A stretch of 64,000 bases of DNA from an uncultured Candidatus Rokubacteria bacterium (GCA_963747235.1 CAVVEU010000024.1:352001-416000), one strand, 5' to 3'. Positions 47 to 22,648 are shown, counted from the stretch's first letter. The notes: generated by a model from the sequence alone, not told the origin. Made by a program: numbers and translations.

Positions 47-913
47 ATGCCGGCCGATCTGTTCGCGCAGGCGCTGAACGGGCTGGCCTACGGGGTGCTG
101 CTGTTTCTGCTGTCCGTCGGGCTCACGCTGATCTTCGGCATGCTCGACGTGGTCAATCTCGCCCACGGCTCGTTCTACATGCTGGGCGCCTACGCGGGGC
201 TCTCCCTCATCGCGGGCACCGGCAATTTCTGGCTGGCCCTGCTGCTGGCCCCGCTGGCGGTGGGCCTCATCGGGGCGCTGGTGGAGGTGAGCTGCCTCCG
301 CCCGCTCTACCGGCGGCCGCCGCTCGACCAGGTCCTGCTGACCTTCGGGTTCATCTATCTCTTCGAGGACCTGGCGAAGTGGATCTGGGGCGGCCGCATC
401 CGCTCGATCTCGCCGCCCGATCTCTTCTCGGGCTCGGTGTCGGTGTGGGGCGCGATCATCCCGTCCTACCGGCTCTTCGTCATCGTGTTCGGGCTCGTGA
501 TGGCGGTGCTGCTCTGGCTCCTGATCGAGCGCACGCGCCTGGGGGCGATCATCCGCGCGGGCGTGTTCGACGCCGAGATGACGGGCGGGCTCGGCATCAA
601 CATCAAACTTGTTTTCACGACCGTGTTCGCGTTCGGGGCCGCGCTCGGCGGGCTCTCCGGCGTCATCGCGGGGCCGATCCAGTCCGCCTACCCGTCCATG
701 GGCGTGGCCATCCTGATCCCCGCGCTGATCGTGGTGGTGGTGGGCGGGCTCGGCAGCCTCAAGGGCTCGCTGGTCGGCAGCCTCGTCATCGGCCAGGCCG
801 AGACCTTCGGGAAGGCGTGGCTGCCCGACTCCTCCATGCTGATCATCTACGTGGTGATGGCCACCGTGATGCTGCTCCGGCCCCAGGGGCTCTTCGGCCG
901 CCCGCTCAAGTGA
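47..913 (+). CDS. livH: Branched-chain amino acid-type ABC transporter permease (LivH family)
   Basis: GLTLIFGMLDVVNLAHGSFYMLGAY, VVVGGLGS and RPQGLFG motifs; multi-TM protein. Confidence 0.92.
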   Translation: MPADLFAQALNGLAYGVLLFLLSVGLTLIFGMLDVVNLAHGSFYMLGAYAGLSLIAGTGNFWLALLLAPLAVGLIGALVEVSCLRPLYRRPPLDQVLLTFGFIYLFEDLAKWIWGGRIRSISPPDLFSGSVSVWGAIIPSYRLFVIVFGLVMAVLLWLLIERTRLGAIIRAGVFDAEMTGGLGINIKLVFTTVFAFGAALGGLSGVIAGPIQSAYPSMGVAILIPALIVVVVGGLGSLKGSLVGSLVIGQAETFGKAWLPDSSMLIIYVVMATVMLLRPQGLFGRPLK

Positions 914-10671: not shown

Positions 10672-12441
10672 ATGACACTCGACTCCGCGCAGTACCAGCG
10701 TAGCGCCGCGCCGGCGGGCTCGGGCCCGATGACGCAGGTGATGGGGCGGAAGTGGATGGTGGCGGCCGGGCATCCGCTCGCCGCGCAGGCGGCCGCGCGC
10801 GTGCTGGCCAACGGCGGCAACGCGATCGACGCGGGCGTAGCCGGCGGGTTCATGCTGGGAGTCGTCCATCCCGACATGGTGAGCTTCGCGGGCGTGGCGC
10901 CGATCCTGGTGCACCTGGCCTCGACCGGCGAGACCTTCGAGGTCTCGGGCGTCGGGCCCTATCCGCGGCGGCTGACCGCCGACCTCTTCCGCACCAAGCA
11001 CGCGGGCGAGATCCCCATCGGCCTGCTGCGCACCGTGGTGCCCGCCTCGCCCGACGCCTGGTGCGTCGCGCTCGAGCGCTGGGGCACGCTGTCCTTCACC
11101 GACGCGGTGTCGTCCGCGCTGGAGTGCGCGGAGCACGGCTTCCCCACCTCGGCCTTCTCGGCCTCCATCATGGCCAACAACGCCGAGCGGTACACGCGCT
11201 TCCCGACGTCCGCCAAGATCTTCCTGCCGGGCGGCAAGCCGCACGCCGCCGGGCAGCTCTTCGTGCAGTCGGAGCTGGCCGCGACGATCAAGGAGATGGT
11301 GTCCGCCGAGGTGCGCTCGCGCAGCCGCGGCCGCGCCGGCGCCATCCGCGCCGCGCGCGACGCCTTCTACAAGGGCGACATCGCCAAGCGCATCGTGGAC
11401 TATCACGCCCGCGAGGGCGGGCTGATGGCGCTCGAGGACCTGGCCGAGTTCCACGCCGAGGTCGCGCCCGCGCTCAAGACCACCTTCCACGACTATGAAG
11501 TGGCGGCCTGCGGCTTCTGGTGCCAGGGGCCGGTGTTCTTGCAGATGCTGAACCTGATCGAGCCCTACGACTGGCCCGCGCTCGGCCACAACACGCCGCG
11601 CGCGCTCCACATCCTGGTGGAGGCCATGAAGCTCGCCTTCGCGGACCGCGAGGCCTACTACGGCGATCCGCGCTTCGTGAAGGTGCCGGCGGACGCGCTG
11701 CTCTCGAAGGCCTACGCGGACCTGCGCCGCGGCCTGATCCGCGAGGATCGCGCGTGGCCCGAGATGCCGCCGCCGGGTGACCCGGAGGGCAAGGCCGCGG
11801 TGCGCAATGGACACGCCACGGGCTCCAAGGTGGGCGCGCCCTCGCACGCGGGCACGCTCGATACCTCGTACGTCTCCGTGATCGACGCGGAGGGCAATGC
11901 CTTCTCCGCCACGCCCAGCGACCCGGGTGGGGTGGACTCGCCGGTGATCCCGGGCGTGGGCTGCGTGGTCTCGCCGCGCGGCTCGCAGGGCTGGCTCGTG
12001 CCCGGCCATCCGAGCGAGGTCGTGGGCGGCAAGCGGCCGCGGCTCACGCCGGCGCCGTCCCTCGTGCTGCGCGACGGCCGCGCCTTCATGGCCTTCGGCA
12101 CGCCGGGCGGCGACGTGCAGCAGCAGGCCATGCTCCAGGTGCTGCTCAACATGGTGGCCTACGGCATGGCGCCCCAGCAGGCGGTCGAGGCCCCGCGGCT
12201 GGCCACGCGCAGCTTCCCCGATTCGTTCTGGCCCCACACGAACTCGCCCGGTCGTCTCGACGTCGAGGCCCGCATCGCCCCCGAGACGCGCGCGGAGCTG
12301 GCGAAGCTGGGCCACGTCATCACCGACTGGCCCGACTACGACTGGCGCGCGGGCGCGGTCTGCGCCTCGGTGGTGGGCAAGGACGGCGTGCGCCTGGGCG
12401 GAGCCGACCCACGCCGCGGCGCGCACGCCATCGGCTGGTAG
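10672..12441 (+). CDS. ggt: Gamma-glutamyltransferase family protein
   Basis: GGNAIDAGVA, EAMKLAFADR, Ntn nucleophile Thr in DTSYVSVIDAEGN, FGTPGGD, GGADPRR. Confidence 0.9.
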   Translation: MTLDSAQYQRSAAPAGSGPMTQVMGRKWMVAAGHPLAAQAAARVLANGGNAIDAGVAGGFMLGVVHPDMVSFAGVAPILVHLASTGETFEVSGVGPYPRRLTADLFRTKHAGEIPIGLLRTVVPASPDAWCVALERWGTLSFTDAVSSALECAEHGFPTSAFSASIMANNAERYTRFPTSAKIFLPGGKPHAAGQLFVQSELAATIKEMVSAEVRSRSRGRAGAIRAARDAFYKGDIAKRIVDYHAREGGLMALEDLAEFHAEVAPALKTTFHDYEVAACGFWCQGPVFLQMLNLIEPYDWPALGHNTPRALHILVEAMKLAFADREAYYGDPRFVKVPADALLSKAYADLRRGLIREDRAWPEMPPPGDPEGKAAVRNGHATGSKVGAPSHAGTLDTSYVSVIDAEGNAFSATPSDPGGVDSPVIPGVGCVVSPRGSQGWLVPGHPSEVVGGKRPRLTPAPSLVLRDGRAFMAFGTPGGDVQQQAMLQVLLNMVAYGMAPQQAVEAPRLATRSFPDSFWPHTNSPGRLDVEARIAPETRAELAKLGHVITDWPDYDWRAGAVCASVVGKDGVRLGGADPRRGAHAIGW

Positions 12442-13186: not shown

Positions 13187-13238
13187 GGGCGCGACGCGGG
13201 CGTTGGAGCAGGCTATCCGCCGGCCGCGTCATTCGCGC

Positions 13239-14607
13239 TTACGGGTCTCGACGTTCTCGCGTGGCCCGCGGATGCAGCACGTCGATCGCCCAGCGCACGT
13301 CCAGCCGCTCCCCGAACCACTGGGCGAGCCCGGTGCGCGCATGGAGCTTGAGCCCCTGCGCGGCGTTCTGCGCCCGGATCGCTCCCGCCGGATCGGCAGG
13401 CACCACCGCCGGCGCCGGCACGTCGGGCAAGGCGCGGCCGTCCGGTCGCCGGAACTGGAGCGCCCCGTCGGGCCCGCGCTCGAGCTGGTAGCCCTCCTCG
13501 TGCACCGCGCGGTGATGCCGGCGGCAGAGTAACGCGAGGTTCGAGAGCTTCGTCGGGCCCGCCGTGCGCCCAGTGCCGCACGTGATGCCCCTCGGCGATC
13601 CGGACGTTGCAGCCCGGGAAGCGGCAGGTCTTGTCCCGATGCTGCAGCGCCCGCCGCAGCGCCGGCGGGATCGTCCGCGTTCTGGCGCCGACTTCCACCA
13701 CCCGCCCGTCCGCGTCGTGCCGCATCACCACCCGGCTCGCGTCGCACGCCAGCCGCTGCGACGTTCCCGCGGGAACGTGCGCGCCGTCGTCCAGCACCGA
13801 CTGCCCGGGCTGGGTCGCGTCCGCCAGGACCGCGGCGTCCACGTGGACCACCACCTGATACCGCTCCCCGGGCGCCCCCGGGTCGAGCTCGTGATGCAGG
13901 GCCGTCTCGGCCAGCAGGGCCAGCGCGTCCGCCTGCTGCTGCGGCCGGGTCGGGGTCTCCGACGGCCGGATCGGTGGCCGGCATGGCGGCCTCGCTGGCC
14001 CGGCGCCGCTGGTACAGCGTCTCGCGGGCCGCGTCGAGGGCCCGCAGGAGCAGCGCGCCGACCTCCGGCGTCAGGCGCCCGCGCAGCACCACGGTGCCAT
14101 CCTCATCCTGGTGGACGTGCAGGGCCCGGCCCGCGTGCTGGCGCGCGGCCTCTCGGGCGTCGGCCTGCCGGTCCAGCCGCCGCCAGCCCCGGACGATGCT
14201 CTCCACGTGGACCGCCGTGCCCGCGCGCCCCACCGCGAGCAGGCGCGCCTCGGTCTCCGGGGTCGCGATGCGCGTCAAGGCGCGGACCTTGGCGTAGGAC
14301 AGCTCGCCGCGCGCCAGCGCCTCGGCCAGGGCGGGCAGCGTCCCGAGGGCGCGGGCCACCCGGACTCGCTCGCGGGCGGCGCCCGGGGCGAGGCCGACGC
14401 GCCAGGCGAGCCACTCGGCGCAGGAGCGGAAGCCGTTGGCCCAGCCGCGCGCGGGCGTCGAACTCGCGGATGAGCGCGAGCAGGCGGGCCGTCGCGGCCT
14501 CGAGGTGGACGGAAAGCTCGGCGATCTCGTCACCCAGGCGCTCGAGCTCCGCGATACGGGCCGGCGTGGGCTGCCGGTGATGGGAACATCCGACGGACGT
14601 GTGACAT
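13239..14607 (-). CDS. DUF222 + HNH endonuclease (13E12-repeat-like), about four frameshifts
   Basis: GFRSCAEWLAWRVG, GELSYAKVRALTR, RLACDAS, RTRTIPPALRRAL, RDKTCRFPGC...HHVRHW, NLALLCRRHHRAVH. Confidence 0.85.
13761..13778. repeat. Perfect 18-bp palindrome ACGTTCCCGCGGGAACGT
   Basis: Read directly; a 12/13 match to its left half lies at 13249-13261. Confidence 0.85.
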
Positions 14608-14865
14608 GGCGAGTCTCCCTTCTGCTGGGACGACTCTACACCCCGATTTCGCGGCCCTCTGGATGCCTCCAGGCCGCGTGAATCTCGATCCGCCATGATT
14701 GTTCGTCTCCGGCGACGCGACTGCGCGACACGTCCTCACTGTGCGACGCTCAGCCGGCGGTTTCTCGACCGATCCAGGCGAGAATTGATGGCGCCCTCTA
14801 CAACTCGTCAAGTGAAAAGTGCAAGATGGTCGTCGCGAAGGCGGTGTTCCGGCAGTCGTTGTAGT

Positions 14866-14928: not shown

Positions 14929-15720
14929 ATGGCATCGCTCAACGGACGCACCGTACTGATCACCGGCGCCGCCCGCGGCATCGGCGCCGCCACCGCCCGC
15001 CGCCTCGCCACCGAAGGCGCCCGGCTGGTCCTCGCCGACCAGGACGGCGCCGGCGTGGAGAAGCTCGCCGCCGAGCTCAAGCAGGTGGCGGTGAAGGCCG
15101 ACGTGACCAAGCCCGACGACATCGCGCGCATGGTGGACGAGCCCTACAAGCGCTGGGGCCGGCTCGACGTGCTCTTCAACAACGCGGGCGTCATCCGCGT
15201 GGAGCCCATGTTCGACGTCACGGAGGCGGAGTGGGATCGCGTCATGGACGTGAACCTGCGCGCGGTGTTCTTCGTGATGCAGGCGGTGGCGAAGCGCATG
15301 GTGAAGCAGGACGTGATGGCGGGGTCGGAGCTGCGGGGCAAGCTGATCCAGACCGCGTCGATCGCGTCGTATCGGGGCGGCAATCACCTCATGACGCCCT
15401 ACTCGGCGTCCAAGGCCGGGGTGGTGAGCCTCACGCGGTCCGCGGCGCAGTTGCTGGCGCCGGAGCGGGTCACCTCCAACTGCGTGTGCCCGGGGGCGGT
15501 CGAGACGCCGATGTGGGAGCAGATCGACAAGGAGTGGGGCGCGCTCGAAGGCCTGGGGCAGGGGGAGGCGTGGAAGCGGCGGATCCGGCACATCCCGCTG
15601 GGGCGGCCGGAGCGGGCGGAGGACGTGGCCAACGTGGTGGCGTTCCTCGCGGGGCCGGATTCGGACTACATGACGGGGCAGGCGATCAACGTGGACGGCG
15701 GGATCGTGATGGGGAGCTGA
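14929..15720 (+). CDS. SDR-family oxidoreductase (sorbitol/acetoin dehydrogenase-like)
   Basis: TGAARGIG, NNAG, YSASK, NCVCPGAVETPMW; Shine-Dalgarno GGAGG. Confidence 0.9.
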   Translation: MASLNGRTVLITGAARGIGAATARRLATEGARLVLADQDGAGVEKLAAELKQVAVKADVTKPDDIARMVDEPYKRWGRLDVLFNNAGVIRVEPMFDVTEAEWDRVMDVNLRAVFFVMQAVAKRMVKQDVMAGSELRGKLIQTASIASYRGGNHLMTPYSASKAGVVSLTRSAAQLLAPERVTSNCVCPGAVETPMWEQIDKEWGALEGLGQGEAWKRRIRHIPLGRPERAEDVANVVAFLAGPDSDYMTGQAINVDGGIVMGS

Positions 15721-15734
15721 ACCCCGCGGGACGG

Positions 15735-15954
15735 CTACCGCATCGTCGTTTCGTTGACCGGCGTGAAGAACGCGGCGGCGCCGTAGAGGATCTGGCCGAC
15801 CACGCAGAACCAGGCCCAGCGGTCGGGGTCGGCGGTGGAGCAGCGTCGAGGAGATTGGGAGGCCTGGTCGCGTACGCGAGGCCGACGGCCGCGACGTGGT
15901 GGCGCACCCCGCCAGCAGGGCTGCGAGCAGGAGAACGGAGGCCAGGCGTCGCAT
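15735..15954 (-). CDS. Small (~72 aa) lipoprotein with one indel; not in the ORF track
   Basis: MRRLASVLLLAALLAG-C lipobox; C-terminal RRCSTADPDRWAWFCVVGQILYGAAAFFTPVNETTMR* in an adjacent frame; 14 bp downstream of the GAF gene. Confidence 0.65.
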
Positions 15955-15968
15955 GGCCCGGCCGGACG

Positions 15969-18392
15969 CTACGCGGCCGGCGAGCCTTCGGCGCGGGGCT
16001 GGGCGGCGGCGGTCACCGTGGCGGTGGACGGTACGTCCAGCTCGCGGTTGGCCAGGTCCACGCTCACGCGCATCGCGCGCAGGCCCTGGGCGCCCTGCAG
16101 CTCGTCCAGCTCCAGCTCCTCGACGTCGCTGGTCAGGTAGCCCAGGCGCTGGAGGTACTCGATGTACTCGCGCCACTCCGCGGCCTCGCTCGGGTGCGAG
16201 TAGACCAGCGCGATCTTGCCGGGCTGGGTCAGCCGCTCGGTGGTGCCGCGGATGATGGCCTTGTCGATCCGCTTCTTGATGATCTCGTAGCGGACATTGT
16301 AGGCGCCGTCCACGTCGAAGCGCTTCTCGTCGCCGCGGAAGCGGATCGAGAGCGGGGCGTGCTGGATCAGGATCAGGTTGGTGATGTCGAGACGCACCGG
16401 CAGCCGGTCCTTCAACCGCTCCACCCGCAGGGCGACCCCGCAGGCCACCATGAGCTGCCAGAGGCGCATGTTCTTGAGATAGAGCGGATCGAAGATGCCG
16501 TCCTCGCGGAGGGCGCCGCCCAGGTAGATCGTGTAGTCCACCCCGTCCGTCTTCTGCTTCTCGAAGAAGTGCGGGAACATGCCCTGGGCCGCCTGCTCCT
16601 CCAGATCGATGTAGGAGGCGACCGCGTCGTTGATCCGGGTCACGCTCTCGTCGAACTCCTTGCGGCGCGCGTAGACCAGCCCGATGCCCGGATCCACCGC
16701 GGCCCGGTAGGCGTCGATCTTCTCGTGCACCGCGGGGCCGAAGGTCTGCAGGTGGCCGAAGAGCGGCTCGAGGTCCGTCTTGAGGAAGCCGAGCACGCCC
16801 ATCTCGTCCCCCGAGCGCAGCGTCACCTCGATCTCGGCGGTGGAGCCGTCGATGCGATGGGTGAGCTGGTCGAGGATGGGCAGCGGCCGCACCTCGTACG
16901 CGGCGCGCAGCACCTCGCGGGCGAGGCCGAGCTGGGTGAGCAGGTCGGCCTGGATGGCCCACGCGCGGTGCGTGGACGAGCCGCGGATGTCCGACACCGC
17001 GTACAGCGGGTGGACGTCGCGGAACACGATCGGCTCCATCTCGCGGTTGGGCTCGCTCTCCCCGGTGTGCCGGTCCATCGTCTCCAGCACCGCCTTGCGG
17101 AAGCGCCACTCCACCACCGGGTGGATCGCGGTGAACTGCTCCTTGATGAAGCCCTCCACCCGCGAGTGCAGCTCGTCCACGCTGCGCCGGACCGCCACCG
17201 AGAAGAGCGGCAGGACCTCCTGCAGCCGCGGCGCGAGGAGCGTGTTGATGTCGCCCGGGTGCGGGGAGGAGAGGCTGAGCGTGCCGATGAGCTCGCCCTG
17301 GTAGTGCAGGGGCGCGACCACCAGGCTGCGCATGCCCTTCTGGAGGATCATCTCTTCCTTGGCCGACCGCGGGCTCACCGAGGCGAGATCCTCGATGAAG
17401 ATCGGCCGGCCGCTCACGACCGCCTTCTCGAAGACGGAGCCCGCGTAGTCCTTCGTCTTGCCGCGTACCGAGCTCGCGAAGATGCAGCCCTGCCCGTGGT
17501 CGAGCTGGTGCCCGGAGTTGAGCATCAGGATGCGCTCGCCCTCGATGGCGGCCAGGCTCAGGTGGAGGTTCGCGCGGCGGAACAGGGTGCGCAGCTTCTC
17601 CTGCAGCTTCACGAAGCGCGCGTTCGAGACGATGGACTCCTTGTCGATCAGGTCCCGCTTGATCGAGGAGAGCACCTCCTGGTCCGTCACGTCCAGCGCC
17701 TTCACCACCGTGAAGCCGGAGAAGCGCACGCTGCCGGGCGGGATCAGGGTCTTGAGGCCCTCCAGATCCACCGCCTGAGCGGTGAGGCGGCGGCGCATCT
17801 CGTCGGACAGGGGCGGCAGCGGGCGCAGGGCCTCCACGTCCACGAAGCGGCCCTCGAACTGGATCTTGAAGTGGCGATCGAGGCCGGTCTCGGGCTCCGG
17901 CATGGTCAGGATCAGCGGGTAGTCCACCGGGAACTTGATCCCGTGCAGGCGCTCGAGGATCAGGGCGTAGGCGTTGAGCAGGCGGAAGTCCTTGAGCGCG
18001 GCCATCTCGAGGTTGAGCCGGCCGTAGAGCACGCCGTCCGGACCCATGATGTTGTTGTCGAAGGCGCGCGTGCCGTAGACGCTGCGTAGCGTGAACGGGA
18101 TCAGCGCGCCCATGAAGGCCTGCTCCCAGAACACGGGCGGGAACACCGCGCCCATCAGCCCGTCCACCAGCTCCCCGTGCTCGTCCAGCACCGTGATGTC
18201 GTCGATGGGCTCGAGGAGCGCGGGCACCTGGTGCACGCGCGCCATGAGCGACCGCGCCATCTCCCCGCACACCGACGGGTCCTTGGCCTCCTCGTCCCAG
18301 AAGCGGATCAGCGAGGCCAGGCTGAGGCGGCTCTCGAAGGGGAAATCCCGCGCGAAGTCCGGGGGGAGCTTGGTGGTTCCGTCGTTCGTCAT
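15969..18392 (-). CDS. GAF-domain protein with a putative divergent class III nucleotidyl cyclase-like C-terminal domain
   Basis: GAF-like GMRSLVVAPLHYQGELIGTLSL; SDIRGSS, KTDG, RFDVDG, QPGKIALVYS and LQG motifs; TAGAAT 7 nt before ATG 18392. Confidence 0.8.
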   Translation of the reverse strand: MTNDGTTKLPPDFARDFPFESRLSLASLIRFWDEEAKDPSVCGEMARSLMARVHQVPALLEPIDDITVLDEHGELVDGLMGAVFPPVFWEQAFMGALIPFTLRSVYGTRAFDNNIMGPDGVLYGRLNLEMAALKDFRLLNAYALILERLHGIKFPVDYPLILTMPEPETGLDRHFKIQFEGRFVDVEALRPLPPLSDEMRRRLTAQAVDLEGLKTLIPPGSVRFSGFTVVKALDVTDQEVLSSIKRDLIDKESIVSNARFVKLQEKLRTLFRRANLHLSLAAIEGERILMLNSGHQLDHGQGCIFASSVRGKTKDYAGSVFEKAVVSGRPIFIEDLASVSPRSAKEEMILQKGMRSLVVAPLHYQGELIGTLSLSSPHPGDINTLLAPRLQEVLPLFSVAVRRSVDELHSRVEGFIKEQFTAIHPVVEWRFRKAVLETMDRHTGESEPNREMEPIVFRDVHPLYAVSDIRGSSTHRAWAIQADLLTQLGLAREVLRAAYEVRPLPILDQLTHRIDGSTAEIEVTLRSGDEMGVLGFLKTDLEPLFGHLQTFGPAVHEKIDAYRAAVDPGIGLVYARRKEFDESVTRINDAVASYIDLEEQAAQGMFPHFFEKQKTDGVDYTIYLGGALREDGIFDPLYLKNMRLWQLMVACGVALRVERLKDRLPVRLDITNLILIQHAPLSIRFRGDEKRFDVDGAYNVRYEIIKKRIDKAIIRGTTERLTQPGKIALVYSHPSEAAEWREYIEYLQRLGYLTSDVEELELDELQGAQGLRAMRVSVDLANRELDVPSTATVTAAAQPRAEGSPAA

Positions 18393-18415
18393 GGCCATCA
18401 TTCTACTCCAGCCGG

Positions 18416-19705
18416 CTAGCCTGCCGTGGCGGGCAGGCCGGCGGGCGCCATTGTTGTGCTGGGGGTCCGGTTCACGGGCACTTCCTTGATGGCGAGCGCC
18501 ATGGGCACCGCCAGGAACGCCATGAAGGCGGCCGAGGTGAAGGCCCAGGCGTAGGAGCCGGTGGCGGTGAAGATCCAGCCGCCGACCGCCGCGCCGAGCG
18601 CCGCGCCGGCCTGGTGCGCGAAGAAGATCCAGCCCGAGAGCGTGCCCACCGAGTAGCGGCCGAAGATGTTCGCGGTCAGCGTGGTGGTGGGTGGCACCGT
18701 CGAGATGTAGTTCAATCCGAAGATCGCCGCGAAGATGTGCAGCGACGGCACGTTCCAGACATATAGAAGGAAGAGAAGAGACAATCCGCGGACGCCGTAG
18801 TAGAAGGCGAGCGGCCCCTTGCGTCCGAAGCGGTCGCAGATCCAGCCCGAGAGCACGGTGCCCAGGATGTTCATGGCGCCCATCACGCCCAGGGCCTGCG
18901 CGGCGTGCATCTCGGAGAAGCCGTGCTCGGCCGCGTGCGGCACCAGGTGGGTCAGCACGAGCCCGTTCGACGTGTAGCCGCACACGAAGAAGCTGCCGGC
19001 CAGGAGCCAGAACGCGGGGACGTGGATCGCGTCCCCGATGCCCGTCCGGCCCTCCGGCGGCGCCTGCATGCCGCCCGGCGCGATGGCCTGGCCCGCGCCG
19101 AAGGCCTTGAGGCCCTTCTCGGCCGGGTCGTTCCGGATGAACAGCAAGGTCAGCGGCACCGCGATGATGAAGAGGAGGATGCCGAGCCAGATGAACGACT
19201 GGCGCCAGCCGAACGTGAGGGTGAAGATGACCGCGAGCGGAACGATGATGAGCTGGCCCGCCGACATGGCGCCGCCGATCACGCCCATCACGAGCCCGCG
19301 CCGGCCTTCGAACCACCGCGCGGCCACCGTGGCCGCGGTGGACATGCCGACGCCGCCCGAGCCCAGCGCCATCAGCACACCCGCCGTGATGTAGACCTGC
19401 CAGAGCGCGGTCACCTGCGAGGTGAGGATCGTGCCGATCCCGAGCAGGACCACCGAGAGCATGATGACCCGGCGCGGGCCCCAGTGGTCGGCGAGCCAGC
19501 CGACGAAGGGGCCGGCGGCGCCCAGCAGCAGCAGCGAGAGCGCGGCGGCGCCCGACAGCGCGGCCCGGTCCCAGCCGAAGGTGGCTTCCATCGGCTTGAT
19601 GAACACGCCGAAGACGGCCCGCAGGCCGGAGGCCAGCAGCATGACGACCACGAGGGCGCCCAGGACGACCCACGCGTAGTGCACTCCGCCCCGCGATGCC
19701 TTCAC
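18416..19705 (-). CDS. MFS transporter
   Basis: Hydrophobic MFS pattern; GWLADHWGPRR and GWICDRFGRK motif A; GTG at 19705 with GGAGG. Confidence 0.9.
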   Translation of the reverse strand: MKASRGGVHYAWVVLGALVVVMLLASGLRAVFGVFIKPMEATFGWDRAALSGAAALSLLLLGAAGPFVGWLADHWGPRRVIMLSVVLLGIGTILTSQVTALWQVYITAGVLMALGSGGVGMSTAATVAARWFEGRRGLVMGVIGGAMSAGQLIIVPLAVIFTLTFGWRQSFIWLGILLFIIAVPLTLLFIRNDPAEKGLKAFGAGQAIAPGGMQAPPEGRTGIGDAIHVPAFWLLAGSFFVCGYTSNGLVLTHLVPHAAEHGFSEMHAAQALGVMGAMNILGTVLSGWICDRFGRKGPLAFYYGVRGLSLLFLLYVWNVPSLHIFAAIFGLNYISTVPPTTTLTANIFGRYSVGTLSGWIFFAHQAGAALGAAVGGWIFTATGSYAWAFTSAAFMAFLAVPMALAIKEVPVNRTPSTTMAPAGLPATAG

Positions 19706-19829
19706 CCGATCCTCCCCCCGATTCGCCCCCAGGTCGAGAAACCCCACCAGCTTACGCTGACGCCCCTTTGGATGCCAAACCGACCGTCCCGGGATTCAAA
19801 TGGCCCGGGTGTACAGTGACATCAGGACA

Positions 19830-20246
19830 ATGGCGACGCGACGCGTACTTATCGTGGATGACGAGGCGGACGTCCGGAAGACGCTCACGGACATCCTCCG
19901 CGCGATGCGTTACGCGGAGCCCCTGGAGATCGAAGAGGTGCCCGATGGCCGGGAGGGCCTGGACGCGGTGGTGCGCCAGCGCCCGGACCTGGTCCTGCTC
20001 GATCTCCAGATGCCGCGCATGGACGGGCTCGCGCTGCTCAAGCAGATCCGCGAGGTCGAGCCGCGGCTGCCGGTCATCGTGATCAGCGCCACGCAAGACA
20101 ACAAGATGAGCTCCGAGGCGCTGCGCAACGGCGCCGTCGCGTACCTGCCGAAGCCGTTCGATTCGCGTCACGTCGAGATGCTCGTCACGACGTTTCTCGA
20201 CTCGACGAAGCCTCGCCCGCCGAAGCCTGTCCCCGGCGCGCGCTGA
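19830..20246 (+). CDS. Single-domain response regulator (REC)
   Basis: VLIVDDE, DLVLLDLQMP, ISA, YLPKPF. Confidence 0.9.
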   Translation: MATRRVLIVDDEADVRKTLTDILRAMRYAEPLEIEEVPDGREGLDAVVRQRPDLVLLDLQMPRMDGLALLKQIREVEPRLPVIVISATQDNKMSSEALRNGAVAYLPKPFDSRHVEMLVTTFLDSTKPRPPKPVPGAR

Positions 20247-20841: not shown

Positions 20842-22648
20842 ATGCCCACCTTCTCCGACGTGCTCCAGGCGCGGCTCTCGCGCCGGAGCCTGCTGACCGG
20901 CGGCCTCTCCGCGGCCGGCCTGGGCTGGCTGGGGCCCGCGGCCTGGGCCAGCCGCCCGCTCGGCTTCACCGGCGTGCCCGTGTCGACGGCCGACACGCTG
21001 GTGGTCCCGCCGGGCTACGTGGCGGAGATCCTCTACGCCTGGGGCGATCCGATCTCCGACGGCCCCGCCTTCAAGCCGGACGCGAGCAACAGCGTGGACG
21101 ATCAGCTCCGGCAAGCCGGCATGCACCACGACGGCATGCGCTTCTTCCCGCTGCCGGCCGGCCAGACCGGCTCGACCCATGGGCTGCTCGCCATCAACCA
21201 CGAGTACACGGACGACGGCCTGCTCCACCCGGACGGCATGCTGACCTGGACCGCCGAGAAGGTGCGGAAGTCGCAGGCGGCGCACGGGATCTCGGTGATC
21301 GAGGTGCGACTGGACGGCAACCGCTGGAGCGTGGTTCGGCCGTCGCGCTACGCGCGCCGGGTCACCGCGGCGACGCCGATGGGGATCACCGGGCCGGCCG
21401 CCGGACACGCGTGGATGCGGACCGCCGCCGATCCGGCCGGCCGCACCGCGCTCGGCACGATGAGCAACTGCGCGATGGGCTACACCCCGTGGGGCACCTA
21501 TCTGACCTGCGAGGAGAACGTCCAGTTCTACTTCGTCAACCGCTCCGACCGACGTGCCCGCGCTCCAGCAGCGCTACGGCATCACCGCGCGGGGCGGCGG
21601 CTACCGCTGGCATGAGTTCGACGAGCGCTTCGATGCCGCGCGCCATCCGAACGAGCCCAATCGCTTCGGCTGGGTCGTCGAGATCGATCCCTTCGACCCG
21701 TCGCGGCCGCCCCTGAAGCGCACCGCGATGGGGCGCTTCAAGCACGAGGGCGCCGCCCTTTCGATCGCGCCGGATCGCCGCGTGGCCTTCTACATGGGCG
21801 ACGACGAGCGCTTCGAGTACGTCTACAAGTTCGTGAGCCGCGACCCGGCCCACCGCGACGCGCTCGAGCACGGCACGCTCTACGCGGCCCGCTTCGACGC
21901 CGACGGCACCGGCGTCTGGCTCGAGCTCGCCCCGGGGCAGAACGGGCTCGACGCGGCCGCCGGGTTCCCGAGCCAGGCCGAGATCTGCATCGCGCCGCGT
22001 CTGGCCGGGGAGGTCGCGGGGGCGACGACGATGGACCGCCCGGAGTGGATCGCGGTGCACCCGCAGACCGGCGAAGCCTACTGCGCGCTCTCCTACAACG
22101 AGACGCGGGGCCAGCCCGGGCGCCCGGGACCGAACCCGGCCAATCCGCGGTCGGCGAACGTGTACGGCCACATCATCCGCTGGCGGGAGCGCGGCGGCGA
22201 TCCGACCGCGACGCGCTTCGAGTGGGACGTCTTCATCCTCTGCGGCGACCCCGCGAGCAAGGGCGACGCCTTCGGCTCGCCGGACGGGCTGTGGGTGGAC
22301 GGGCGCGGCGTGCTGTGGATCCAGACCGACGTGTCCACCCGGCTCCTGCACAAGGGCGACTACGCGGGCATGGGCAACAACCAGATGCTGGCCGCCGATC
22401 CGGTCACGCGGGAGGTGCGGCGCTTCCTCACCGGCCCCCGCGGCTGCGAGGTCACCGGCGCGACCGGCACCCCGGACGGGCGGACGATGTTCGTGAACAT
22501 CCAGCACCCGGGGGAGACGCCGAGCGAGCGGAGCAACCCGGCCACGCCGAAGGGCATCAGCGCCTGGCCGGACGGGCCGAGCGGAGGGCGACCCCGCTCG
22601 GCCACCGTGGTGATCCGCCGCGCCGACGGCGGGCTGATCGGAACCTAG
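20842..22648 (+). CDS. phoX: PhoX-family alkaline phosphatase, Tat-exported; indel near 21550
   Basis: SRRSLL Tat motif, [48 protein letters not shown]. Confidence 0.92.

Follow-up and report, generated by a model that had tools for sequence, protein, structure and literature searches.

Which activity, if any, resides in the C-terminal part of a long bacterial protein that annotation knows only by its GAF domain? The question is raised by a gene on the minus strand of a 64,000-nucleotide stretch of DNA, here called the window, from an uncultured Candidatus Rokubacteria bacterium (GCA_963747235.1 CAVVEU010000024.1:352001-416000). The gene spans positions 15969 to 18401, starts with an ATG at 18401, and encodes 810 residues plus a stop codon. 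An earlier note, made from the raw sequence, had read the region downstream of the GAF domain as a divergent class III nucleotidyl cyclase fold, and we find that this call is correct in its essentials. Our preferred reading, to which we give a probability of about 0.55, is that the protein is a ligand-regulated cytosolic nucleotide-converting enzyme, whose catalytic domain would be a cyclase palm of class III that has diverged far in sequence while its metal site keeps both Asp residues. If the predicted fold is taken at face value, the 810-residue protein probably makes a nucleotide signal.

The assignment is carried first by predicted structure. An AlphaFold2 (AF2) model of residues 430-810, built on a 136-sequence family alignment, has a predicted local distance difference test (pLDDT) score of 94.1 and a predicted template modelling score (pTM) of 0.89. 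A Foldseek comparison of this model to the PDB gives 16 matches at E≤0.001, and all 14 of those listed are class III adenylyl or guanylyl cyclases. The best match is Cya2 from Synechocystis (2w01_B, E 3.1e-4, template modelling (TM) score by target 0.56), and the others listed at this threshold include CyaC (1wc0-1wc5), AC9 (7pdf and 6r4p), a phytochrome-cyclase chimera (6fht), a guanylyl cyclase from Chlamydomonas (3et6), human soluble guanylyl cyclase (3uvj), and 2bw7. Weaker cyclase matches, down to E 1e-2, comprise CyaB (3r5g), a trypanosome enzyme (1fx4), a mammalian enzyme (1cjk), and uridylate cyclase (8jsz). The predicted structure contains a β-α-β-β-α-β palm and, insert aside, its elements follow the order of the class III catalytic domain. 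The model puts D471 at the end of its first strand, directly before a helix that has the invariant Ser475 at its N-terminus, and D619 is the single non-strand residue at the turn of a hairpin. From these topological positions, the two residues are predicted to be adjacent, as in the metal-binding Asp pair of cyclases. Of the two outcomes named beforehand as refuting the divergent-cyclase proposal, the lack of a structural match to the cyclase palm did not occur, nor did a loss of the Asp residues in the family (see below), and we hold the fold assignment, taken alone and as a matter of modelling, with high confidence. Class III cyclases convert an NTP (nucleoside triphosphate) to a 3',5'-cyclic monophosphate and pyrophosphate, as head-to-tail dimers whose active sites lie at the interface. 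A homodimer prediction for two copies of residues 430-810 gave an ipSAE of 0.00 in both runs, which were made without control runs, a value that counts neither for nor against dimerisation. One could argue that a handful of motifs on an unrelated fold resembles a cyclase by chance, and the sequence-profile comparisons reported below are indeed non-significant. We nevertheless see this as very improbable, as the model is confident, the listed cyclase matches are followed by other palm-domain enzymes, and the motifs fall on topologically matching elements of the model.

The second line of evidence is residue conservation. The alignment comprises the query C-terminus and 135 full-length representatives out of 150 listed (n=136), with short or fragmentary rows dropped. 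The six motifs quoted in the earlier note are all found in the claimed order and places in the 810-residue translation, and they are no chance strings, since conservation across this very large family is highest there. Residues W432, F434, D471, S475, D486, Q606, D619, G620, Y626, W648, V697, G699, R711, R723 and R778 are identical in 136/136 sequences, so that both candidate metal-binding Asp residues are kept, as had been claimed. More than 90% conservation is seen for R479, E533, Y565, Y577, R580, H611, T618, N644, R646, Q649, E692, Y701, R704, E706, K709, K710, D713, K714, E722, T725 and Q726. Within the first motif, the invariant S475 is flanked by S476 (125/136), with R473 in 123/136, and the position three residues past D619 (residue 622) is always acidic (E in 72 sequences, D in 64). 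The part of the protein that carries no annotation is its most constrained part, with an identity to the query of 41-57% over the cyclase-like C-terminal domain versus 17-41% over residues 1-262.

These counts bear on whether the domain might be a pseudo-enzyme, i.e. a non-catalytic module that binds a nucleotide or other ligand and serves in regulation or scaffolding. The canonical N-x-x-x-R pair and the Lys of the KG motif are not kept, no cyclase sequence model recognises the domain, and catalytically dead cyclase-like domains occur in other proteins, reportedly in Acinetobacter AdvA (a 2026 bioRxiv preprint). However, pseudo-enzymes normally lose the very residues that are invariant here, namely both metal Asp residues, the Ser of the phosphate-binding turn and several Arg and Lys residues, and the C-terminal domain is where constraint is strongest. 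Because these residues are invariant, the domain is likely to act on an NTP. Conservation thus favours an enzyme, and we judge a pseudo-enzyme to be quite improbable.

A comparison with canonical class III cyclases (PF00211; 2w01, 1wc4, 3r5g) shows how far the family has moved. The predicted palm core and order of elements are shared, as are the Asp at the close of strand 1 and, just after it, a G-S-S/T phosphate-binding turn (D-I-R-G-S-S in the family, D-[ILV]-x-G-[FS]-T in cyclases), the Asp of the hairpin, the PG-x-I strand after helix 4, the GAF/PAS-type input, and the conserved linker helix. The earlier note also spoke of altered specificity residues, which is only partly borne out. In canonical cyclases a residue pair specifies the base, Lys with Asp/Thr for ATP and Glu with Cys/Ser for GTP. 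The position four residues before the second Asp, which we take to be that of the canonical purine-specifying Lys, corresponds to K615 in a non-significant hhalign alignment, and is occupied by Lys in 96/136 and Arg in 17/136 sequences (113/136 together). Where cyclases have N-x-x-x-R on helix 4, the family has N-x-R...K-K-R..K, with N702 (120/136) and R704 (132) only two residues apart and followed by K709 (135), K710 (125), R711 (136) and K714 (135). Where cyclases have a terminal K-G, the family has Q-G, position 769 being Gln in 110/136 and Pro in 21/136 sequences. Further differences are that PF00211 fails to detect the family, that 147 residues stand between its two Asp against a spacing of 44, and that class III cyclases are shuffled among many sensor architectures whereas this family keeps one fixed architecture with a much higher cross-phylum identity.

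Sequence comparison is silent or nearly so. A Pfam scan of the 810-residue protein at E≤10 returned GAF only, with no match to PF00211, and among 61 of the 136 aligned members neither PF00211 nor GGDEF matched at E≤0.01 (0/61 for both). The NCBIfam scan of the protein gave no match, and neither did the PADLOC defence models. A phmmer search of PDB sequences found GAF domains only, and the family profile, run against all PDB sequences, found GAF domains and, at E>0.2, two chains with no relation to them, one from a phage tail fibre and the other from antichymotrypsin, but no cyclase. Local hhalign comparison to 11 cyclase domains from the same genome aligned only SDIRGSS with aDlrGFT, over 8 columns (E 0.069, not significant). 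With the insert columns removed, a collinear alignment of 178 columns was obtained (E 0.057, not significant). In it, D471 falls opposite the first Asp, K615 opposite the specificity Lys, D619 opposite the second Asp (GD), G628 opposite a conserved Gly, and P727-G728 opposite the pg of pg.I. Against a 22-sequence cyclase profile, hhalign gave P values of 0.051-0.069, while control regions of the same protein (N-terminus and GAF) gave 0.28-0.29. This outcome agrees with the structural match but, in our view, does not prove it independently. Matches of the family hidden Markov model to six-frame open reading frames (ORFs) of the genome were rejected as a link to cyclases and treated as noise: they scored at most 0.5 bits, covered 11 of 37 cyclase ORFs, several of them paralogues, and aligned the insert helices out of register to cyclase helix 1. 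The statement in the earlier note that such proteins are usually annotated for GAF only holds true, as RefSeq and metagenome names read 'GAF domain-containing protein' or 'hypothetical protein'. As a separate observation, the 5.57-Mb genome of the window holds 28 PF00211 matches above the family cut-off (29 at E≤0.001), many in open frames of 700-1300 residues. This is an unusually large cyclase complement, and the gene studied here is not among the 29.

The most distinctive feature of the domain is its insert. In 124/136 members, 147 residues lie between D471 and D619 (range 144-152), compared to a spacing of 44 in the canonical cyclases of the same genome (10 of the 11 domains where the pattern found both motifs), from which we deduce an insert of approximately 104 residues. 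The helical insert of about 100 residues that had been proposed to follow the first motif is borne out by four model helices (residues 508-526, 532-554, 556-568 and 579-606) between helix 1 and strand 2, and by a length that is constant across the family. Its near-invariant residues are E533, Y565, Y577, R580, S586 and Q606. The place of the insert, between the strand of the first Asp and the hairpin of the second, is presumably that of the fingers in family A polymerases, with their motifs A, B and C. From rank 38 of the 50 listed PDB matches onwards we see family A and B DNA polymerases (E 1.6e-2 and weaker, rmsd (root-mean-square deviation) 13-23 Å), whose matches span 252-275 columns versus around 200 for most cyclase matches. 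In the viral database BFVD, the best rows that carry a name belong to family A DNA polymerases of phages (from E 2.7e-3 downwards in strength) and to one CHASE2-type sensor protein; two unnamed rows rank best (E 4.4e-4 and 9.1e-4, over 367-380 columns), and all the matches listed, from E 4.4e-4 to 6e-3, have TM scores of just 0.21-0.26. The span of the polymerase matches, the BFVD matches and the acidic position 622 are consistent with a fingers-like placement of the insert.

These data invite a different reading of the domain, as a polymerase-like nucleotidyltransferase in which palm and fingers-like insert would bind an acceptor other than the 3'-OH of the nucleotide itself, to give an oligonucleotide, either linear or cyclic, or else a small molecule or protein that carries a nucleotidyl group. 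Family A DNA polymerases such as T7 polymerase and Klenow fragment likewise place two acidic positions on a strand end and a hairpin, with a helical subdomain in between. The insert sits at the fingers position according to the Pol I motifs A, B and C, has a constant length, and contains the near-invariant Y565, Y577, R580 and Q606. The weak PDB matches include T7 polymerase (1skw_A, E 1.6e-2) and Klenow (1kfs_A, E 2.8e-2), the second acidic residue three positions past D619 recalls polymerase motif C, and a fixed architecture with high conservation is more in keeping with an enzyme of dedicated function than with an output module of signalling proteins. The scores, however, point the other way. 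Cyclases have approximately 50-fold better E-values in the PDB search, an rmsd of 5-8 Å versus 13-15 Å, and a TM score by query of 0.26-0.33 versus 0.20; the polymerase matches in BFVD superpose at an rmsd of 14-20 Å. The polymerase matches in the PDB lie at E 1.6e-2 to 4e-2. No thumb-sized region follows the palm in our model, and the family has no template-binding region, no exonuclease domain and no polymerase sequence motifs. Nucleic-acid-related genes are also lacking among the neighbours at 81 loci. We therefore think the polymerase-like reading fairly unlikely. A bolder proposal, which we rate as unlikely, is that the domain is neither a classical cyclase nor a polymerase, but a nucleotidyltransferase reduced to 'palm plus fingers' and standing, as a living intermediate, between class III cyclases and family A polymerases. 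Here the insert would replace the second cyclase subunit and complete the active site within one chain, which, under control of a ligand sensed by the PAS-like and GAF modules, would make a new nucleotide signal, for instance a non-canonical cyclic nucleoside monophosphate (cNMP) or a short oligonucleotide of linear or cyclic form. Bacteria from soil and sea, in at least 10 phyla, would use this signal.

Returning to the preferred reading of a regulated, cyclase-type enzyme, the remainder of the protein looks like an input region. The AF2 model of residues 1-262 has a pLDDT of 93.7 and shows two α/β modules. Foldseek finds nothing in the PDB for this model at E≤0.001, and the weak matches that rank highest are to the NifL PAS domain (9qq6, E 0.045), the aureochrome LOV domain (6t73), DosP, the TlpA dCache domain, the BvgS PAS domain and PERIOD. 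As all of them are sensor domains of the PAS, LOV or Cache type, the modelled N-terminus may plausibly be a PAS-like sensor in tandem. The GAF domain is matched by Pfam GAF models, and a comparison of the family profile with solved structures leads to GAF domains as well (best 3p01_A, E 8.5e-6); among the 61 members scanned with Pfam, GAF_2 is found in 47 and GAF in 39. The linker that joins the GAF domain to the cyclase-like domain contains the invariant W432 and F434. An input of this kind, GAF and a PAS-like region upstream of the catalytic domain, is also what regulated cyclases show. We suggest that the PAS-like double α/β N-terminus and the GAF domain act as the input modules of a single-chain cytosolic sensor enzyme, coupled to the C-terminal catalytic domain by the strictly conserved linker helix. 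D471 and D619 would bind two Mg or Mn ions, and a ribose hydroxyl would attack the α-phosphate of the bound NTP, with release of pyrophosphate. The product is most likely a nucleotide second messenger, whether cAMP or cGMP, a pyrimidine cNMP or a non-canonical one. Owing to the insert, the basic helix 4 and the Gln in place of the KG lysine, its identity is not readable from sequence.

Several observations weigh against this reading. No sequence method links the C-terminal domain to cyclases, and the cyclase matches are moderate, with TM scores by target of 0.44-0.56 and an rmsd of 5-8 Å. In the 136 aligned sequences, neither the canonical Asn/Arg spacing nor the lysine of the KG motif is retained. 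Neither a cyclic-nucleotide receptor nor a phosphodiesterase was found as a conserved neighbour at 81 loci. Finally, signalling cyclases do not usually combine a fixed architecture with a cross-phylum identity of 42-57%, and the substrate may thus be of a different kind. Fixed architecture, high conservation, insert, basic helix 4 and Gln769 together leave room for a different acceptor or product.

How widespread is the family? Using the C-terminal 381 residues, we see 7043 proteins at E≤0.001 among 8000 candidates scored, and matches to the representatives of 1129 clusters made at 50% identity, of which 627 reach E≤1e-30. With few exceptions, the 150 best representatives have a length of 750-880 residues and match at approximately residues 420-790, and from these near-constant lengths and positions we conclude that the three-part architecture is fixed. 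In species genomes, at least 588 of 599 candidate stretches were confirmed, across many phyla. The 80 loci kept for analysis come from Methylomirabilota/Rokubacteria, gammaproteobacterial metagenome-assembled genomes, Desulfobacterota (Desulfosarcina widdelii), Gemmatimonadota, Rhodothermia, Ignavibacteria/Melioribacteraceae, Entotheonella, Poribacteria, Eremiobacterota, Bacteroidota (Hymenobacter, Pontibacter, Adhaeribacter, Rufibacter, Nibribacter, Fulvivirga and Reichenbachiella), and others. Hymenobacter, Pontibacter, Adhaeribacter, Fulvivirga and D. widdelii represent cultured, harmless bacteria, among them H. roseosalivarius DSM 11622, P. chitinilyticus and D. widdelii PP31. Two large non-mobilizable plasmids carry the family, in Haliovirga abyssi (Fusobacteriota) and Chondrinema litorale, where the RefSeq names are 'GAF domain-containing protein' and 'hypothetical protein'; no phage record with the domain was found. 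Homologue, cluster and genome counts indicate that the gene is real and under selection.

Of 201 genomes sampled from the phylum to which the window belongs, 100 are positive, as are 49 of the 104 high-quality ones (tallies that include two genomes marked unpublished, G029 and G101). The positives are concentrated in two taxonomic families (88/125 and 10/16), and none was found in the other families searched in this sample. The gene is single-copy in the window's genome. Two full-length copies are seen in several genomes of the same genus and family (e.g. G127, G186, G195, G196, G133 and G150), the second being around 60-64% identical to the query, which means that the family has been duplicated within this lineage. 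Short forms comprising only the C-terminal domain appear to be fragments, as the contigs that carry them are for the most part 1-3 kb long. A few forms of this kind with 346-454 residues also occur on contigs of 66-768 kb (P0091, P0109, P0273, P0296, P0311 and P0378), and these could be stand-alone catalytic domains, split genes or genes with mis-called starts.

At the locus itself, a GGAG sequence stands 6 nucleotides 5' of the ATG, and the start codon is 12-14 nucleotides past the stop codon, at 18416, of an upstream gene for a transporter of the major facilitator superfamily (MFS). The closest homologues, which are labelled Candidatus Rokuibacteriota or Methylomirabilota, have 801-811 residues and 70-96% identity to the query, and the host is accordingly most likely a soil member of this phylum. 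A longer minus-strand ORF, 15969..19673, was rejected as the extent of the gene, since it overruns the MFS gene in another frame. The G+C content of the window is 66-75%. A scan of positions 15600-20000 found no promoter-like site and one terminator-like site, which was not above shuffled sequence. Six metatranscriptome runs from three studies contain 21-27% of the sampled sequence words of the gene. In this window the MFS gene is probably co-transcribed with the cyclase-like gene, yet is not a conserved partner, and a short-chain dehydrogenase/reductase (SDR) gene converges on the cyclase-like gene from downstream. A similar MFS neighbour is found in 5/81 loci, and a similar SDR neighbour in 7/81. 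No gene neighbour is conserved over the 81 loci (antisense ORFs inside the gene excluded), and neighbours are lineage-specific and mutually unrelated: PAP2, methyltransferase, M61 peptidase, ABC ATPase, LytTR regulator, HAMP-cyclase. An operon partner for the family was therefore considered and rejected, the commonest neighbour cluster being present in only 9/81 loci and the neighbours being functionally unrelated. Separately, 6/81 loci have a canonical cyclase gene, of class III and with a HAMP domain, no more than 8 kb away from the family gene (e.g. L040:4916-6478). This probably reflects the high cyclase density of these genomes, though a functional link is conceivable. A role as a defence system was also rejected, with no PADLOC match, no phage records and just the two large non-mobilizable plasmids.

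Other features were noted in the window. A stand-alone response-regulator receiver protein of 148 residues is encoded at 19800-20246 on the plus strand, divergent from the MFS and cyclase-like pair. Also on the plus strand are a fragment or ORF of a PhoX-type alkaline phosphatase at 20842-21615 (the match to Pfam PhoX, E 4.5e-60, extends over no more than positions 2-193 of the 515 in the profile) and a gamma-glutamyltranspeptidase gene at 10672-12441 (Pfam G_glu_transpept E 3e-104). A DUF222-type gene occupies 13229-14696 on the minus strand (Pfam PF02720 E 2.8e-11 in a 434-residue ORF, 13229-14533); its N-terminal part seems to run on in another frame (ORF 14103-14696), and the whole may be a frameshifted or mis-assembled DUF222/HNH-like element.

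Table 1. Features of the cyclase-like gene, its predicted protein domains and its upstream neighbour, with residue numbers and window positions.
Feature	Residues	Window position	Strand	Basis or remark
Whole gene		15969..18401	-	PAS-like N-terminus, GAF, conserved linker, cyclase-like domain; ORF, start, homologue lengths
Upstream MFS transporter gene		18416..19747	-	Pfam MFS_1 E 7.8e-50
N-terminal domain	1-250	17652..18401	-	two α/β modules, weakly PAS/LOV/Cache-like; presumed sensor
GAF domain	~262-415	17157..17618	-	Pfam GAF E 1.4e-8 (residues 320-382), GAF_2 E 8.3e-7
Conserved linker helix	424-446	17064..17132	-	consensus TAIHPxVEWRF; alignment; model helix residues 431-446
Predicted class III cyclase-like palm domain with helical insert	455-785	16047..17039	-	AF2, Foldseek, element order
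Helical insert	~505-607	16581..16889	-	model helices; constant family length; residue counts
Motif YAVSDIRGSS	467-476	16974-17003	-	end of strand 1 and start of helix 1
Motif EKQKTDGVDYTIYLG	614-628	16518-16562	-	translation
Motif LDITNLILIQHAPL	671-684	16350-16391	-	translation
Motif RFDVDGAYNVRYEIIKKR	694-711	16269-16322	-	translation
Motif TQPGKIALVYS	725-735	16197-16229	-	translation
Motif ELQGAQG	767-773	16083-16103	-	translation
Motif 2, strand 2-3 hairpin FFEKQKTDGVDYTIYL		16521..16568	-	strands 612-618 and 620-627; D619 at turn
Helix 4 equivalent AYNVRYEIIKKRIDK	700-714	16260..16304	-	basic helix at place of cyclase transition-state Asn and Arg
Candidate metal Asp 1	D471	16989-16991 (codon)	-	136/136
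Candidate metal Asp 2	D619	16545-16547 (codon)	-	136/136
C-terminal tail	786-810	15972..16046	-	poorly conserved; mean pLDDT 50-60 in last three model blocks
Strand	459-473		-	AF2 model
Helix 1	475-504		-	AF2 model
Hairpin	612-618 / 620-627		-	AF2 model
Long helix	639-666		-	AF2 model
Strand	672-678		-	AF2 model
Two arm strands	684-689, 694-697		-	AF2 model
Helix	700-714		-	AF2 model
Strand	729-734		-	AF2 model
Helix	737-752		-	AF2 model
Strands	756-765, 775-781		-	AF2 model

Two further groups of known enzymes help to place the family. GGDEF diguanylate cyclases belong to the same palm superfamily and are often regulated by GAF or PAS domains, comparable to the GAF and PAS-like input seen here. 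They differ in their GG[DE]EF motif, in place of which the family hairpin reads K-T-D-G-V-[DE]-Y, and the 50 PDB matches listed do not include a GGDEF structure. Pycsar pyrimidine cyclases and the Anabaena uridylate cyclase 8jsz are divergent class III-type enzymes with non-purine products, and 8jsz_A is a structural match at E 6.8e-3. Unlike Pycsar systems, the family has no PADLOC match, no adjoining effector gene at the 81 loci and no defence-island context. On the evidence of the models, we view the family as a cryptic, insert-bearing branch of the cyclase/palm superfamily.

As to novelty, a recent Pfam release seems to have a model that touches the cyclase-like domain. A precomputed match to PF27174 (Atlas label 'YeeD') is found in some members and in C-terminal fragments, amounting to 23-33% of members in the nearest Protein Atlas clusters; a possible link of this model to cyclases is our main uncertainty on novelty. 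The nearest Atlas clusters are the family's own fragments, and with those excluded there was no usable match. A literature search found no paper on the PF27174 accession, and the titles and abstract openings of the 'YeeD' literature show no such domain. At the level of abstracts, we found no description of this protein family.

The set of nucleotide second messengers is still expanding, with cGAMP, cUMP and cCMP, and cyclic oligonucleotides among the additions, and each new synthase family has opened a signalling or defence pathway. Here, a large and conserved family filed under GAF and hypothetical names appears to hold an intact two-metal cyclase-type site that sequence models do not see. 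If it is an ordinary adenylyl cyclase, thousands of genes would at least gain a correct annotation. Should the family be active, the cyclase superfamily would have a further branch, marked by its unusual insert resembling fingers and perhaps by a product not seen before.

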